Positions 33,903 through 36,486 of a stretch of DNA of 64,000 nt are shown one piece after another (positions within the stretch are counted from its first letter, which is position 1; every line of letters begins with the position of its first letter). The DNA comes from an uncultured Eubacteriales bacterium (GTDB taxonomy: Bacteria > Bacillota > Clostridia > TANB77 > CAG-508): the NCBI GenBank assembly GCA_902787685.1, contig CADAHH010000004.1, forward strand, positions 96,310 to 160,309. Reading direction: 5' to 3'. The translations under genes and the position numbers were made by a program. The notes beneath the pieces are model-generated. The model made no database searches. It saw only the letters and a program-made list of their open reading frames with translations, and was not told the origin of the DNA.

Positions 33903-35798
33903 ATGAAAAAATATTATGAATTATTTATAACTAAAGATACTTTAGATCTATCTGATTGGAATACCTTATTTAAAGAAATATCTAGATTAAATAGTATTTT
34001 TGGATCTTGGAAATTGTATTTATTAATTGAAAATAATATGCTTAGATTTTATATTAAATCAAAAGTTAAAATTCCATCTATTCTAAGCAGTTCTTCTTGT
34101 TTTGTTATAAAGGAAATTGATACAATTGATACTATATCTAAATTTATTTCCAAAACACATATATGTATGGAATCTGATAAATCTTTTGGGGTCATTTATG
34201 ATAAATTTGAATCTCAAAGTAATAAAATTCTTAAACAAATTGAAATAAAATTTAAATATATTGCACTGGATAGGTATTATACAAAAACATATCTTTATTT
34301 TAAAAAGAGTAATAATAAAATTACCAAGTATAGATCATTTTTTTTTATTCCAGCTTATCACTTACAACTAGATTTTTCTGATCATACTAGATTTTTTTGT
34401 AGAGTTGATGTTGGTAGAAAGTATTTAAAAATAAATAAATCTTTTGATTTATTCTCTCCTAAAAATGATGAGGAAAATTTACTTGAAATTGATGCATTTC
34501 CATATTATCAAGATAGAAAGTTTTTAAACTTAGAATCTTATGATTTTGAAAAACATTCTTTAATTGTGGGTGCAAGTGGTACTGGTAAGTCAAAATTTTT
34601 AGCTTCTTTTATCAAAAACATACATGACAATTATAGTGATTTATATAAAATTGTAATGATTGACCCTCATGGAGCAATTGAAGAAGAAGTTGGAGGTTTA
34701 GATGATACATTAGTAATTGATATGAAATCACCTGAATCAACAATAGATATTTTAATTAATTCTAAATCTAACGCAAATATTAATACTGAAGTATTATTAA
34801 GTACATTTAAAAACATTTTGGCAGATCAATATAATTCAAAACTTGAAAGAGTACTAAGACATAGTATATATCTACTATTAAAAAATGAACTTTTGACTTT
34901 TCCAAATTTGGAAAAACTAATTACTGAAGTTGAGTTTAGAAATAAAATATTAAAAGAATCACAAGAAGTTGAATCTAGTATTAAAAGTTTCTTTTTAACT
35001 GATTTCAATGATTTAAAAAATCATTCTTATACAGAAGCCATATCTCCTATTATCTCTGTAATAGATGAACTTCAGATGTTACCTGGTATTATTTCTGAAG
35101 AAGAAAAAATAAAATTATCAGATGCTATCCAAAATAATAGTTTTACATTGTTTTCCCTTAATCAAGCAGAATTAGGAGAAAAAGTAATCAAAATAATTTC
35201 TAATTTAATAATAGGCAATATTTTTCAACTTGTGCAAAAAAAATCATTTGATAAACATATTATTTTTATAATAGATGAGTTTGCAATTATACAAAATCCA
35301 ATACTGAGTAAACTATTATCTGAATCACGAAAATATAATTTATCTTTATTCTTAGTTGAGCAATATTTATCACAGGTTTCTGAAGATATTCAGAATTCAA
35401 TTTACTCAAATGTTGTAAACTATTATTGCTTTAGAGTAGCAAGAGAAGATGCTAGACTTTTGGCTAATACGTTGCAAATGGAATTATCTGTAAAGGATTC
35501 TATTTTTAATAAAGTTAAAATTTTATCCAGCTTATCTAATAGAAATCTAATTGTTAGAGTTTCAAAAGATGATAAAATAATTCCTGCCATCAAGTGCAGA
35601 ACTCTTGACTTTAAAAAAATACCTAGACCAAAAAATATTTTAAAAAATATAAAAGACACTGGTAAAAAAATATTAAAGAAATTTACTTTTGAACTTGGAA
35701 AAGTAAAAAACATTTCAGAAATTATGAAATCACAGTCAACAGGTCGAAGCAAAAAACGTGGTTTTAATTTTGGTATAGGAAATAAAAAAGATGAATAA
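33903..35798 (+). CDS. HerA/FtsK-superfamily (DUF87-like) P-loop ATPase with an uncharacterised ~215-aa N-domain
   Basis: Walker A GASGTGKSKF, then MIDPHG, Walker B IIFIIDEFA, and SRKYNLSLFLVEQ. Start set at MKKYYELF (GGAG 6 nt upstream). Confidence 0.7.
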   Translation: MKKYYELFITKDTLDLSDWNTLFKEISRLNSIFGSWKLYLLIENNMLRFYIKSKVKIPSILSSSSCFVIKEIDTIDTISKFISKTHICMESDKSFGVIYDKFESQSNKILKQIEIKFKYIALDRYYTKTYLYFKKSNNKITKYRSFFFIPAYHLQLDFSDHTRFFCRVDVGRKYLKINKSFDLFSPKNDEENLLEIDAFPYYQDRKFLNLESYDFEKHSLIVGASGTGKSKFLASFIKNIHDNYSDLYKIVMIDPHGAIEEEVGGLDDTLVIDMKSPESTIDILINSKSNANINTEVLLSTFKNILADQYNSKLERVLRHSIYLLLKNELLTFPNLEKLITEVEFRNKILKESQEVESSIKSFFLTDFNDLKNHSYTEAISPIISVIDELQMLPGIISEEEKIKLSDAIQNNSFTLFSLNQAELGEKVIKIISNLIIGNIFQLVQKKSFDKHIIFIIDEFAIIQNPILSKLLSESRKYNLSLFLVEQYLSQVSEDIQNSIYSNVVNYYCFRVAREDARLLANTLQMELSVKDSIFNKVKILSSLSNRNLIVRVSKDDKIIPAIKCRTLDFKKIPRPKNILKNIKDTGKKILKKFTFELGKVKNISEIMKSQSTGRSKKRGFNFGIGNKKDE

Positions 35799-36486
35799 AT
35801 CAGATATTAAAGATACCATGTCTAAAATTTTTTATAGTATTTTTGAAAAAGACATATCCATAGAAATTGATGAAATATACAAAAAATATGCTTTCGATAT
35901 TAATCTACCATTTAAGGTTAAAGATTCAATGACAGGCGAGGAAACTTGGAGTATAATAGAAAACGCTCCCAAATATATTACGCAAAAAAATATGGAACAT
36001 TGTAGTGATAAAAGAGGATGGATGTTCCCTAAAAAAAATATAACAACACTTGAGGAAATAATAAAGAATTGGGAAAAAGCTAATTTTATAACTACTGAAA
36101 GATTATATAATTCTACAAACTGTATAAAATGTGATACTATTTATAATTGCAATAATATATATCATTCTGTTGATTTAACAAAATGTTCAAATTCATTCTT
36201 TTGTGATGGATGTAGAAATTGTGAATTAATGATTGCTTCTCAAAGAACTACTGATTCTATAAACTGCCTAAGAGTTGATGATTCAAGTAGTTGTTCAAAC
36301 AGTTTTAATGTAATCTGCTCTGGAAAAATTGCAAATTCATATTTTATACAAGATTGTAGTGATCTATATGAATGTATATTTTGTTCACATATATCAAATA
36401 GAAAATTTTGTATAGGAAATATGCAATATGAAGAAGATGAATATTATCAAATAAAAAAGACAATAGTAAACTGGATATTAGAATAA
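35791..36486 (+). CDS. Cysteine-rich protein of unknown function, translationally coupled to the ATPase
   Basis: The start overlaps the upstream stop by 8 nt. About 14 Cys lie at roughly 8-13-residue intervals in the C-terminal half (NCIKCDTIYNCNNIY..KCSNSFFCDGCRNC...CSNSFNVICSG...CIFCSH..FCIGN). Confidence 0.6.
   Translation: MNKSDIKDTMSKIFYSIFEKDISIEIDEIYKKYAFDINLPFKVKDSMTGEETWSIIENAPKYITQKNMEHCSDKRGWMFPKKNITTLEEIIKNWEKANFITTERLYNSTNCIKCDTIYNCNNIYHSVDLTKCSNSFFCDGCRNCELMIASQRTTDSINCLRVDDSSSCSNSFNVICSGKIANSYFIQDCSDLYECIFCSHISNRKFCIGNMQYEEDEYYQIKKTIVNWILE

Follow-up and report, generated by a model that had tools for sequence, protein, structure and literature searches.

Among the systems closest to the locus described here are those that pair an FtsK/HerA-superfamily ATPase with one partner, encoded next to it in a compact operon, as in HerA-NurA, Sir2-HerA and DUF4297-HerA, and in such HerA-plus-partner systems the partner docks on the hexameric ring. 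Rob-type regulators bind small molecules and activate stress or efflux genes in response, and the antifreeze protein of Tenebrio molitor (PDB 1EZG) folds into a 12-residue-per-turn beta-helix with a cysteine at every sixth residue. The methylation-associated defence system (MADS) is an eight-gene operon (bioRxiv 10.1101/2023.03.30.534895). The locus that we describe here, from a window of 64,000 nucleotides (the whole stretch of DNA that was analysed), resembles each of these in part, and in the literature that could be searched no description of its ATPase-partner pair or of the partner family was found.

The plus-strand pair observed at 33903-36486 is a real two-gene unit (Table 1), and its two open reading frames and their 8-nt overlap agree with what a first-pass annotation of this DNA had reported. 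The ATG of gene 1 (33903) is preceded, 6 nt upstream, by the ribosome-binding site GGAG (33893-33896), and its TAA stop (35796-35798) shares the 8 nt ATGAATAA with the ATG of gene 2 (35791). The hairpin that follows gene 2 has a predicted RNA fold of -20.7 kcal/mol (z = -5.7), a stability reached by 0 of 200 shuffles, and it resembles a bidirectional terminator. In the leader upstream of gene 1, promoter-like hexamers are no more frequent than in shuffled sequence; a riboswitch or other leader RNA at that position was rejected, as Rfam has no matching family. The pair had been called the only multi-gene plus-strand block, which holds locally (roughly 21-42 kb) but not for the window as a whole, where a second two-gene plus-strand block lies at 44450-46796. 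Its neighbours in the window are housekeeping genes, the eight flanking ORFs that were scanned all carrying housekeeping Pfam domains, and neither a defence island nor a mobile-element context surrounds it there. RuvB is found 2 kb from the module in this window; among related loci, RuvB adjacency occurs only in the closest relative (L009).

Table 1. Features of the locus, in positions of the window.
Feature	Position	Strand	Size	Description
Leader	33702..33902	+		intergenic; presumed promoter of the two-gene operon
Gene 1	33903..35798	+	631 aa	FtsK/HerA-superfamily ring ATPase, predicted soluble
Stop/start overlap ATGAATAA	35791..35798	+	8 nt	translational-coupling junction
Gene 2	35791..36486	+	231 aa	partner protein, undescribed family
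Hairpin	36508..36571	.		A-run and T-run on flanks; between convergent gene 2 and regulator gene
Regulator gene	36563..37354	-	263 aa	Rob-like: HTH_18 + GyrI-like/Cass2

Gene 1 consists of an N-terminal domain (residues 1-214) that has no family match in Pfam, a P-loop core (residues 215 to about 530) and a basic C-terminal tail. Between Walker A and Walker B the core carries an insertion, which Pfam aligns to its model of the TrwB all-alpha domain; the top match, TrwB_AAD_bind (33.5 bits against a cut-off of 20.5), spans Walker A, this insertion and Walker B, and DUF87 (PF01935; 28.1 bits, cut-off 23.2) and TraG-D_C (26.2 bits, cut-off 22) also score above threshold. Walker A, GASGTGKS, occupies residues 222-229 and Walker B, IIDE, residues 456-459. 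Within Walker A, G223, S225, G226, G228 and K229 are invariant in 27 homologues, and elsewhere in the family alignment the same is true of D254-P255-H256, the Walker B pair D458-E459, E474, R476-K477 and Q487. An arginine-finger region (E-x-RK-Y/x-G/N) with its downstream glutamine is present and aligns to the HerA sequence EGRKYGVTLLLASQ. With HerA proteins gene 1 shares F-x-K-H ahead of Walker A, D-P/I-H, the DE of Walker B and E-x-RKY...Q, and its best sequence relatives in the PDB are the anti-phage HerA proteins 8xau, 8wiv and 8ziq; FtsK and T4CPs are also among its relatives. The HerA/FtsK-like assignment made from the sequence at first pass is thus upheld by DUF87 and TrwB_AAD_bind above cut-off and by HerA as best solved relative, and the four motifs that had been picked out (GASGTGKS, IDPHG, IIDEFA and SRKYNLSLFLVEQ) are all there. 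No transmembrane segment was found, the 19-residue Kyte-Doolittle average peaking at 1.41 with no window above 1.6 (2.84 in a membrane-protein control). Judged by its sequence, gene 1 is an FtsK/HerA-superfamily P-loop ATPase, predicted to be soluble and with its catalytic motifs intact, and its nearest kin are the DNA-translocating members HerA, VirD4/TrwB and CedD.

These likenesses do not extend to any one described system. T4CPs (TrwB, VirD4, TraG, TraD) share with gene 1 the two above-threshold Pfam domains and the long insertion between the Walker motifs, but gene 1 lacks their transmembrane anchor, is only about 20% identical to those of plasmids, and across 80 loci has no relaxase, VirB4 or other T4SS gene conserved near the pair. 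Membership of a T4SS or conjugation apparatus was rejected for want of a membrane anchor, of linked T4SS or relaxase genes and of close plasmid relatives. The PADLOC model for mad8 of MADS matches the gene 1 core (2.8e-19, and 1e-11 to 5e-19 in relatives), but the other seven mad genes are absent and the partner and regulator have no PADLOC match. The PADLOC check proposed at first pass therefore yields partial, below-cut-off matches to the ATPase (mad8, HerA), none to the partner or the regulator, and no known defence system; likewise Pfam, PADLOC, NCBIfam and the gene neighbourhood revealed no complete system, so that the pair does not turn out to be part of a T4SS or of a characterised operon. 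The HerA-plus-partner systems differ in several respects: gene 2 is not NurA, Sir2 or DUF4297 and has no known domain or fold, the curated HerA models fall far short of their cut-offs, the first 214 residues of gene 1 match no family, and here a Rob-like regulator forms an integral third gene.

Gene 2 is a member of a new protein family. It comprises an N-terminal alpha/beta domain (residues 1 to about 105; nt 35791-36105), a Ser/Cys-ladder solenoid (residues about 106-212; nt 36106-36426) and a C-terminal capping helix (residues 215-230). It matches no family in Pfam (even at E<=1), NCBIfam or PADLOC and no PDB sequence, the Sir2 match in the latter search being non-significant (E 0.77 over 45 residues). 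An AlphaFold2 model (pLDDT 80, pTM 0.79; pLDDT 62 only when built from a shallow alignment) reaches at least 90 in the N-domain and only 54-68, a low-confidence range, in the solenoid; against this model Foldseek returned nothing at E<0.8, and LbH structures appeared only at E>0.8 with TM<=0.15. A nuclease-like N-domain was considered and set aside: its alpha-beta-beta-beta-alpha order looks PD-(D/E)xK-like, yet the Foldseek search was empty at E<0.8. Across Pfam, NCBIfam, PADLOC and Foldseek, no nuclease, NADase or other effector or catalytic domain could be recognised. The family is large, with 241 close relatives, about 1,043 cluster representatives at 50% identity and matches in 463 stretches of species-representative genomes. 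Mean column identity is 67% across 32 species-level relatives, and among related loci of different phyla the partner is better conserved (50-60% identity) than the ATPase (35-50%). Micrarchaeota also encode fused, two-domain versions of the partner; the search pattern for these was a 6-sequence alignment, a 25-sequence two-domain alignment being too divergent.

Gene 2 has 15 cysteines, 14 of which lie in residues 106-212, in keeping with the count of about 14 beyond the N-domain given at first pass, and its cysteine content, 6.5% overall and 13% in that region, compares with a median of 1.0% in the other ORFs of the window. The repeated CSNSF noted earlier is found twice, at residues 132 and 168. 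The quasi-regular cysteine spacing proposed at the same time is real in being non-random, Ser/Cys positions falling on a period-3 lattice to an extent that 0 of 20,000 shuffles reached, but the gaps run from 3 to 15 residues, not 8 to 13. The underlying period is the hexapeptide [S/C]-x-x-hydrophobic-hydrophobic-x, with ladder columns at 108+6k (k=0-8) and 165+6k (k=0-5) and a single +3 slip between the two blocks; at each ladder position C or S occurs in 82-100% of sequences. Covariation gives the geometry: in direct coupling analysis (DCA), 24 of the top 100 couplings join residues 12 apart (0.84 expected), all but one of them within residues 109-207, and bacterial and archaeal subsets analysed separately each give 17 of 100. 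The couplings peak at 12 and show no peak at 18. On this covariation the repeat region of the partner forms a solenoid, very thin, with 12 residues to the turn, about eight turns in all and two Ser/Cys ladders in its core. What covariation predicts, and what the AlphaFold2 model does not render with confidence, is an intracellular 12-residue-per-turn beta-helix, a geometry that we otherwise know only from an insect antifreeze protein.

With that protein, 1EZG, gene 2 shares the 12-residue turn and two small ladder residues 6 apart, but the PDB sequence match is non-significant (E = 4.4), there is no Foldseek match, and gene 2 is cytoplasmic, comes from anaerobes and has an additional N-terminal domain and C-terminal helix. 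The likeness is an analogy in geometry, not homology. Most ladder cysteines of gene 2 are serine in its relatives, only C195, C198 and C207 being kept as Cys in 82-98% of a diverse alignment; because the ladder is mostly serine there, it is not disulfide-dependent as in 1EZG, and a metal or disulfide role finds no general support. Of the "metal- or disulfide-stabilised solenoid" suggested at first pass, the solenoid is borne out by the DCA and the stabilisation is not, and an Fe-S, zinc or disulfide Cys ladder was dropped on the same grounds. The conserved polar residues of the partner are D115, R161, N210 and Q212, together with the CxxC...C cluster. With a pI of 5.5 the solenoid is no more than mildly acidic, which gives no indication of a DNA-mimic role. 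Two other repeat folds were discarded: hexapeptide acyltransferases (LbH) have the wrong turn length, 18 residues, and gave no Hexapep match, and pentapeptide-repeat DNA mimics, with a 20-residue turn, fail on turn length, pI and the lack of a Pentapeptide match.

The regulator completes the unit. It matches HTH_18 (3.4e-17), Cass2 (9.7e-11) and GyrI-like (1.7e-4) in Pfam and, over positions 5-262 of 286, the NCBIfam model RobA_TF (4.6e-21); since its 75 bits fall below the equivalog cut-off of 380, we read this as a match in Rob-type architecture and not as orthology. It shares its AraC-HTH plus GyrI-like architecture over the full length with E. coli Rob (RobA), but is linked to an ATPase-solenoid operon instead of efflux genes. 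Here it lies downstream of gene 2 on the opposite strand, whereas in most related loci it is directly upstream on the same strand. A gene-1 homologue stands directly upstream of the gene-2 homologue in 88/88 related loci, in agreement with the earlier proposal of a conserved, uncharacterised pair: the two co-occur in every related locus examined. Their genes overlap in 60 of 79 related loci, 43 of these 60 with an identical 8-nt overlap. Conservation in and around the pair is confined to three gene clusters, the partner (80/80), the ATPase (79/80) and the AraC-GyrI regulator (67/80), other neighbours varying; the first-pass annotation was right about the identity of the AraC/GyrI gene, but it is a member of the module in those 67 loci and no bystander. 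The ATPase-partner linkage persists in CPR relatives at 30% and 25% identity, and a Rob-like AraC+GyrI regulator completes the module even in a relative at just 25% identity. Together, regulator, ATPase and partner make up a conserved, undescribed, chromosomally encoded three-gene module. Archaeal arrays have a different regulator, HTH_10, embedded among the paralogues; a common origin with the bacterial AraC-GyrI regulators was rejected, since hhalign pairs only the HTH, at 10.7% probability.

The partner family occurs in gut Bacillota MAGs, Saccharibacteria, other CPR bacteria and Micrarchaeota, and the module is enriched in host-dependent, reduced-genome lineages. In Micrarchaeota, 2-9 tandem partner paralogues flank one ATPase. 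A gene-1-like ORF is present on the same contig in 18 of 80 loci there (E 1e-69 to 1e-78 for 13 of them), and in the 14 loci that were mapped it is immediately next to the paralogue array; most of the loci that lack it are on contigs only a few kb long. On some contigs the partner arrays take up 8-13 kb of a genome of about 1 Mb. Two observations we take as signs of cross-phylum transfer: between Saccharibacteria and Bacillota, copies share 51-54% identity, and the GC content of the module is lower than that of its flanks by 6-8 points. A tblastn search of 50,697 phage records and of IMG/VR gave no match, and among plasmids no close relative was found. A phage origin, raised by weak PHROG matches (phrog_5156, phrog_15341), was rejected as unsupported by these tblastn searches. 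In one lineage a TraC-like/VirB4-like/ParA cluster follows the pair at a distance of about 2 kb.

We suggest, with somewhat less than even confidence, that the module is a ligand-induced motor-adaptor complex that acts on DNA, in a conditional protective role rather than a housekeeping or secretory one. The Rob-type regulator would sense a small molecule and turn on the operon; ATPase and partner, made in fixed proportion, would form a complex in which the partner docks on the ATPase ring and provides substrate recognition or effector activity; and ATP spent by the ring would drive the translocation or remodelling of a polymer, most probably DNA. The partner is probably dimeric, because Micrarchaeota encode the fused two-domain versions. 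A conditional protective role seems likelier than housekeeping or secretion because expression appears to be ligand-controlled and paralogues diversify in archaea, and it is possible by analogy with HerA-partner systems and Rob-type regulators; the threat could be foreign DNA or a toxic compound directed at DNA. Complex formation, the DNA substrate, inducibility and the biological role itself are what we infer from these comparisons. Several observations run against this reading: the partner is better conserved than its ATPase, which one would not usually see in a sensor or effector of defence; the enrichment in host-dependent, reduced-genome lineages might reflect a lifestyle function instead; and no effector domain can be recognised in the partner.

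A more specific proposal is that the module is an anti-phage or anti-plasmid defence of the "HerA plus effector" kind, in which a HerA-like hexamer would scaffold and activate the solenoid as effector or sensor and the archaeal arrays would be diversified specificities. The anti-phage identity of the best solved ATPase relatives, the PADLOC mad8 and HerA matches, the compactness of the module and its variable chromosomal contexts, the signs of cross-phylum transfer and the Micrarchaeota arrays of 2-9 paralogues all favour it, but we consider it unlikely: no complete known system was detected, the partner has no PADLOC match, the ATPase scores 19.8 bits against the 800-bit cut-off of HerA_antiphage (NCBIfam), the window contains no defence island or mobile element, no relatives turned up on phages or plasmids, and a partner at 67% mean column identity is strongly conserved. 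To our knowledge, moreover, a ligand-sensing Rob-like regulator is no usual companion of defence genes. The anti-phage role hinted at by the first-pass annotation hence stands as one possibility only, given weak ATPase matches, a setting outside any defence island and an unusually conserved partner. Quite unlikely, in our judgement, is an exapted VirD4/TrwB-like T4CP that works with a substrate adaptor and delivers DNA or protein to secretion, uptake or pilus machinery encoded elsewhere, in support of a host-dependent lifestyle. Neither ATPase nor partner has a membrane anchor, the T4SS genes and relaxase are not conserved near the pair, the plasmid T4CPs are distant (about 20% identity), and a T4CP homologue in Southlakia is reported to be non-essential for epibiotic growth; on the other side stand TrwB_AAD_bind as top Pfam match with TraG-D_C also above cut-off, the phyletic pattern (CPR, Micrarchaeota, small gut Bacillota) and the TraC-like/VirB4-like/ParA cluster of one lineage. 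VirD4-like homologues in CPR, which may or may not be of the gene-1 family, point the same way: 5,713 were counted in 2,918 genomes, only 148 of them near virB4, and the authors leave exaptation possible (bioRxiv 10.1101/2025.01.22.634366).

The regular 12-residue-per-turn solenoid with its capping helix, the many paralogues beside one ATPase in Micrarchaeota (8-13 kb out of about 1 Mb of genome) and the absence of a recognisable catalytic domain in the partner would also suit a structural role, with solenoids stacked end to end like bactofilin-type beta-helix filaments, an ATPase that assembles, remodels or disassembles them, and archaeal paralogues that co-polymerise. We hold this to be improbable, as a regulator that responds to a ligand is more in keeping with a conditional response than with a cytoskeleton, D115, R161, N210, Q212 and the CxxC...C cluster are suggestive of a site for binding or catalysis and not of a passive rod, and we know of no FtsK/HerA-family ATPase that acts as a filament remodeler. 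Least probable of all, and very much so, is a DNA-end processing or repair pair like HerA-NurA, in which the partner would take the place of the NurA dimer on the HerA ring. The HerA-like motifs of the ATPase, the dimeric partner implied by the two-domain fusions and the RuvB 2 kb away in this window speak for it, but the partner bears no signature of NurA or another nuclease, RuvB adjacency recurs only in L009, and on an archaeal relative helicase_HerA (NCBIfam) gives a weak P-loop match of 16.5 bits against a cut-off of 970.

We offer, as a tentative and still doubtful proposal, that the module is an unrecognised machine of Bacteria and Archaea, in which a soluble FtsK/HerA-type ring motor is combined with a new intracellular class of ultra-thin, 12-residue-per-turn Ser/Cys-ladder beta-solenoid, and that it is typical of host-dependent prokaryotes that are ultrasmall or have reduced genomes (CPR, DPANN Micrarchaeota, uncultured gut Bacillota). 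The biology of these lineages is mostly unexplored and genetic tools for them are only now appearing. A partner family of about 1,000 representatives without Pfam, NCBIfam, PADLOC or structural annotation is an annotation gap in its own right, and because the partner is always tied to the same type of ATPase, and usually to a ligand-sensing regulator, the module is a well-defined three-part system to test. It may account for part of the "orphan VirD4-like" ATPases noted in CPR genomes, and, if the proposal is true, its function would be a new defence principle or a lifestyle process outside the known HerA, T4CP and FtsK systems.

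The FtsK/HerA-type ATPase gene (gene 1) and the gene for its partner protein (gene 2) form, together with a Rob-like regulator, a fixed three-gene module. ORF calling recovers both genes, one copy of each in the window, just where the first-pass annotation had placed them, with the 8-nt overlap ATGAATAA in which the TAA of gene 1 (35796-35798) overlaps the ATG of gene 2 (35791). The best start of gene 1 is the ATG at 33903, with GGAG six bases before it, which gives a product of 631 aa. The window has a G+C content of about 27%, and the coding-strand GC skew reverses across the pair. 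Coding is mostly on the minus strand, as that annotation had described, but its claim that this is the only multi-gene plus-strand block holds just for the surroundings (roughly 21-42 kb), since a second one, further along, also comprises two genes. Both proteins recur verbatim on a 197-kb contig, and the gene 2 protein does so on at least 22 contigs of different samples.

Features of the window and of related loci (window positions are in nucleotides; locus positions follow the locus handle)
Feature	Position	Strand	Remark
Gene 1 ORF	33891/33903-35798	+	ORF calling
Gene 2 ORF	35791-36486	+	ORF calling
Regulator	36563-37354	minus	downstream of gene 2, convergent with it
Imperfect palindrome GTTACTATAAAGTAAC within TTGTTTTGACCATGTTACTATAAAGTAACAAAAC	33783-33815		
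Second two-gene block	44450-46796	+	
His_Phos_1 ORF	30843-31274	minus	143 aa
111-aa ORF	37750-38085	minus	
Nine-T run	~37753-37761		
80-aa ORF	37530-37772	minus	
Gene 2 ladder columns, first block	residues 108, 114, 120, 126, 132, 138, 144, 150, 156		Cys/Ser 82-100%, diverse alignment
Gene 2 ladder columns, second block	residues 165, 171, 177, 183, 189, 195		Cys/Ser 82-100%, diverse alignment
Pair in Saccharibacteria MAGs	L004:6184-8699, L006:524-3054, L040:3857-6693		
Arrays of 5-9 tandem gene 2 paralogues, Micrarchaeota metagenome contigs	L129:59-12348, L133:3147-15025, L118:48-11251, L116, L123, L157, L163		
Micrarchaeota ATPase with long tail	L118:8564-11251		
Split ATPase gene, gut MAG	L007:6106-8011		526-aa and 115-aa ORFs
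TraC-like/P-loop_TraG (VirB4-like)/ParA cluster, gut MAG	L007:10942-14402		

Gene order shows the pair to be conserved: in all 88 related loci fetched for this comparison, the gene 1 homologue lies immediately 5' of the gene 2 homologue. The two overlap in 60 of 79 loci, 43 of which have the same 8-nt overlap, and gene 2 is translationally coupled to gene 1. Clustering of every ORF in 80 loci, drawn from species-representative genomes, left only three conserved clusters, namely the partner (80/80), the ATPase (79/80) and the AraC-HTH plus GyrI-like regulator (67/80), every other neighbour cluster being common to at most 11 of the loci. The regulator aligns with RobA over its full length (4.6e-21, under the equivalog cut-off). 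In most loci it comes immediately before the pair, in the same orientation, and the order regulator-ATPase-partner is kept in one relative with no more than 25% identity in the partner; in the window's two closest relatives, L009 and L010, it is downstream and convergent, as in the window itself, where a strong hairpin (-20.7 kcal/mol, z -5.7) separates it from gene 2. Some 90-120 nt upstream of gene 1 lies an imperfect palindrome, spotted by eye and not returned by the repeat search, a putative operator site of the regulator. No Rfam element was found in or around the operon.

The remaining neighbours in the window have housekeeping functions: prephenate dehydratase, QueH, an LPG-synthase-type membrane protein, RuvB, Alg13/14-like glycosyltransferases, a sortase and a sigma factor. 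The window ORFs scanned contain no integrase, restriction or CRISPR domain. Relatives of either gene are absent from 50,697 phage records and from IMG/VR, and those of gene 2 from 72,556 plasmids, on which gene 1 finds T4CP/DUF87 proteins only, at about 20% identity. Two further loci in the window deserve mention. A 111-aa ORF, 44% identical to a counterpart in L009, terminates at a TAG that immediately follows a nine-T run, and an 80-aa ORF carries on from it out of frame; gain or loss of a single base would join the two as one protein of about 190 aa. Neither ORF has a Pfam match, and phase variation, a pseudogene or an error in the assembly could account for the split. A histidine-phosphatase (His_Phos_1) ORF covers profile positions 1-150 of 194, is followed by about 220 nt of non-coding sequence before the next gene, and is possibly truncated.

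The assignment of gene 1 to HerA/FtsK-like ATPases is borne out by three Pfam models above cut-off, TrwB_AAD_bind (33.5 bits against 20.5, residues 214-513), the DUF87/HerA central domain (28.1 against 23.2) and TraG-D_C (26.2 against 22), and by HerA being the nearest solved sequence to the gene 1 alignment profile (8xau, 1.1e-5, then 8wiv and 8ziq), with the blocks F-x-K-H-...-G-S-G-K-S, D-x-H and E-G-RKY-G...Q in common. All four ATPase motifs quoted in the first-pass annotation are found. Across 27 homologues, the lowest at 29% identity, the Walker A residues G223, S225, G226, G228 and K229, D254-P255-H256, the Walker B pair D458-E459, and E474, R476-K477 and Q487 are invariant. Gene 1 has no transmembrane segment, and its N-terminal 214 residues match no family. 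Against gene 1, as against its relatives in CPR and archaea, NCBIfam's curated models of HerA, anti-phage HerA, CedD, CedB, VirB4, TraD and EccC give P-loop-level matches only, far below cut-off. These family models, invariant motifs, lack of a membrane segment and sub-cut-off curated scores make gene 1 a soluble ATPase with its catalytic motifs intact, in a clade of its own within the FtsK/HerA superfamily and nearest to the DNA-translocating members. In the window it ends in a short basic tail, SQSTGRSKKRGFNFGIGNKKDE, typical of bacterial versions; one Micrarchaeota ATPase ends instead in about 300 low-complexity residues, enriched in Glu, Asp, Lys, Pro and Ala, which those versions lack. 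The ATPase gene is split in L176 (Patescibacteria; 354 and 210 aa) and in a gut MAG locus (L007, the same as L027), where the split is a frameshift or pseudogene. The latter is the sole locus seen with T4SS-like genes close by, about 2 kb downstream.

Gene 2 belongs to no family in Pfam, NCBIfam or PADLOC, and neither the single sequence nor its profile finds anything significant among PDB sequences. Its 241 close relatives (about 232 aa, 50-94% identity) are all annotated as hypothetical proteins only; a profile search (E<=1e-3) extends the family to 1,043 representatives, among them proteins with one domain (22-35% identity) and others, of about 525-540 aa, made of two tandem copies. An AlphaFold2 model built on a diverse 51-sequence alignment (pLDDT 80, pTM 0.79) is confident for the N-terminal alpha/beta part (residues 1-130, pLDDT at least 90) and the C-terminal helix (215-230, about 88), with the Cys-rich stretch at only 54-68, and Foldseek finds no match to it in PDB or BFVD (best E-value about 0.9).

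Of the 15 cysteines of gene 2, 14 fall within residues 106-212, a stretch that is 13% Cys against a median of 1.0% in the other window ORFs. The first-pass annotation had seen a quasi-regular spacing of 8-13 residues here; the regularity is real, while the gaps in fact range from 3 to 15. The ladder of Ser/Cys positions repeats every six residues apart from a single +3 slip, the fourth and fifth residues of each hexapeptide being hydrophobic, and its period-3 lattice was equalled in none of 20,000 shuffles. Mean-field direct-coupling analysis, run on 744 non-identical sequences of the domain (effective number 535), puts 24 of its 100 strongest couplings exactly 12 residues apart, where 0.84 would be expected; 23 of these lie within residues 109-207. 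Over separations of 4-30, mean coupling has a sharp maximum at 12 (0.89, against 0.05-0.3 elsewhere); separation 24 shows a minor peak and 18 shows none. The peak at 12 also appears when the single-domain proteins (bacterial for the most part) and those of Micrarchaeota are analysed separately, with 17 of the top 100 couplings in either set. A sequence period of 6 combined with a covariation period of 12 is most simply explained by a solenoid with about 8 turns of 12 residues each, in whose very narrow core two Ser/Cys ladders face each other. Three couplings (194-218, 206-215 and 206-219) seat the C-terminal helix on the final turn. A 12-residue-per-turn geometry of this kind is that of the Tenebrio antifreeze protein, which is an analogue and no relative (1ezg matches gene 2 non-significantly, E 4.4). 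Covariation thus upholds the solenoid that had been proposed, whereas metal or disulfide stabilisation is not supported as a general role of the ladder, distant relatives having Ser at most of its positions. Cys is kept as Cys only at C195 (82%), C198 (96%) and C207 (98%) of the diverse alignment, which may form a local site; C198 is often missing from the N-terminal half of two-domain relatives.

The module belongs to a known kind, the ring ATPase plus partner, and by analogy would work most like the HerA-plus-partner systems. As with Rob-type regulators, a small molecule bound by the regulator, which is of the ligand-binding type, would switch the operon on. The ATPase would assemble as a hexamer, as FtsK/HerA-family proteins do, and gene 2, probably dimeric (fused-dimer versions occur in archaea), would dock on the ring and provide substrate choice or effector activity. 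The substrate would most likely be DNA, because the nearest relatives (HerA, T4CP, CedD, FtsK) move DNA. We tentatively favour, at somewhat short of even confidence, a conditionally expressed, DNA-directed protective module of motor and adaptor, and within that reading we lean slightly toward anti-foreign-DNA defence over protection from a DNA-directed toxic compound.

Other interpretations are possible. The HerA-plus-partner systems differ in that gene 1 stays below the curated HerA models and that a Sir2, DUF4297 or NurA partner is absent here; we regard a true HerA-effector defence system as unlikely, and a repair pair of the NurA-HerA kind as very improbable indeed. Gene 1 matches domain models of type IV coupling proteins, but the module has neither their membrane anchor nor their T4SS linkage. 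An exapted coupling protein supplying a distant transfer machine, which we hold to be doubtful, would fit the orphan VirD4-like genes reported by the thousands in CPR genomes (bioRxiv 10.1101/2025.01.22.634366), with a putative overlap with the gene 1 family. A filament of gene 2 solenoids with a remodelling ATPase is a long shot. PADLOC returns no known complete system, only a match of its mad8 model to the gene 1 core (2.8e-19); mad8 is part of MADS, an eight-gene operon (bioRxiv 10.1101/2023.03.30.534895), and membership was rejected, none of the other seven genes being present at the locus. The partner family, its solenoid geometry, the linked regulator and the CPR/DPANN/gut-Bacillota distribution are undescribed in Pfam, NCBIfam, PADLOC, PHROGs, PDB, BFVD and the searchable literature. 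The uncharacterised system of the first-pass annotation is real, and its interpretation there holds in part; a role in defence is unproven.

A scan of species-representative genomes gave 463 matching stretches, and the best 80 of these, all in uncultured MAGs and one in a circular 1.8-Mb genome, are labelled Clostridia, Bacilli, Clostridium sp., Mycoplasma sp., Candidatus Coprovivens, Saccharibacteria and Muribaculaceae (3). G+C content is 23-27% in the best 80 loci and 42-46% in the Saccharibacteria loci. The three Muribaculaceae contigs (L067, L069, L071) have 24-27% G+C and carry the low-GC module of Bacillota type, so that their label is probably wrong, through mis-binning or mislabelling. 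In Saccharibacteria, the pair sits between rplJ/rplL and rplA/rplK/nusG/secE (L004-L006). The low G+C of the module, 6-8 points under both flanks in L004, L006 and L040, and the 51-54% identity of the Saccharibacteria partner to Bacillota copies hint at transfer between phyla in animal-associated habitats.

More distant single-domain relatives of gene 2 occur in Patescibacteria and Dojkabacteria, where a DUF87 ATPase again adjoins, and the two-domain relatives are from Micrarchaeota (DPANN). Mapped Micrarchaeota loci have 2-9 tandem paralogues beside a single gene-1-like ATPase (26% identity to gene 1 over residues 201-589, E 1e-42); such an ORF is found in 18 of 80 loci, the remaining contigs being mostly a few kb only. 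An HTH_10 regulator, unrelated to the bacterial one except for the HTH, lies among or beside the paralogues in 12 loci, and three contigs (Ga0172379_10000188, Ga0210057_1000030, Ga0265297_10000030) carry the family at two separate sites. The largest arrays mix two-domain (about 530 aa) and single-domain (about 255 aa) paralogues, each array abutted by a convergent gene-1-like ATPase and most, L129 excepted, with an HTH_10 regulator in or beside them. For genomes of about 1 Mb, such arrays are a large investment.
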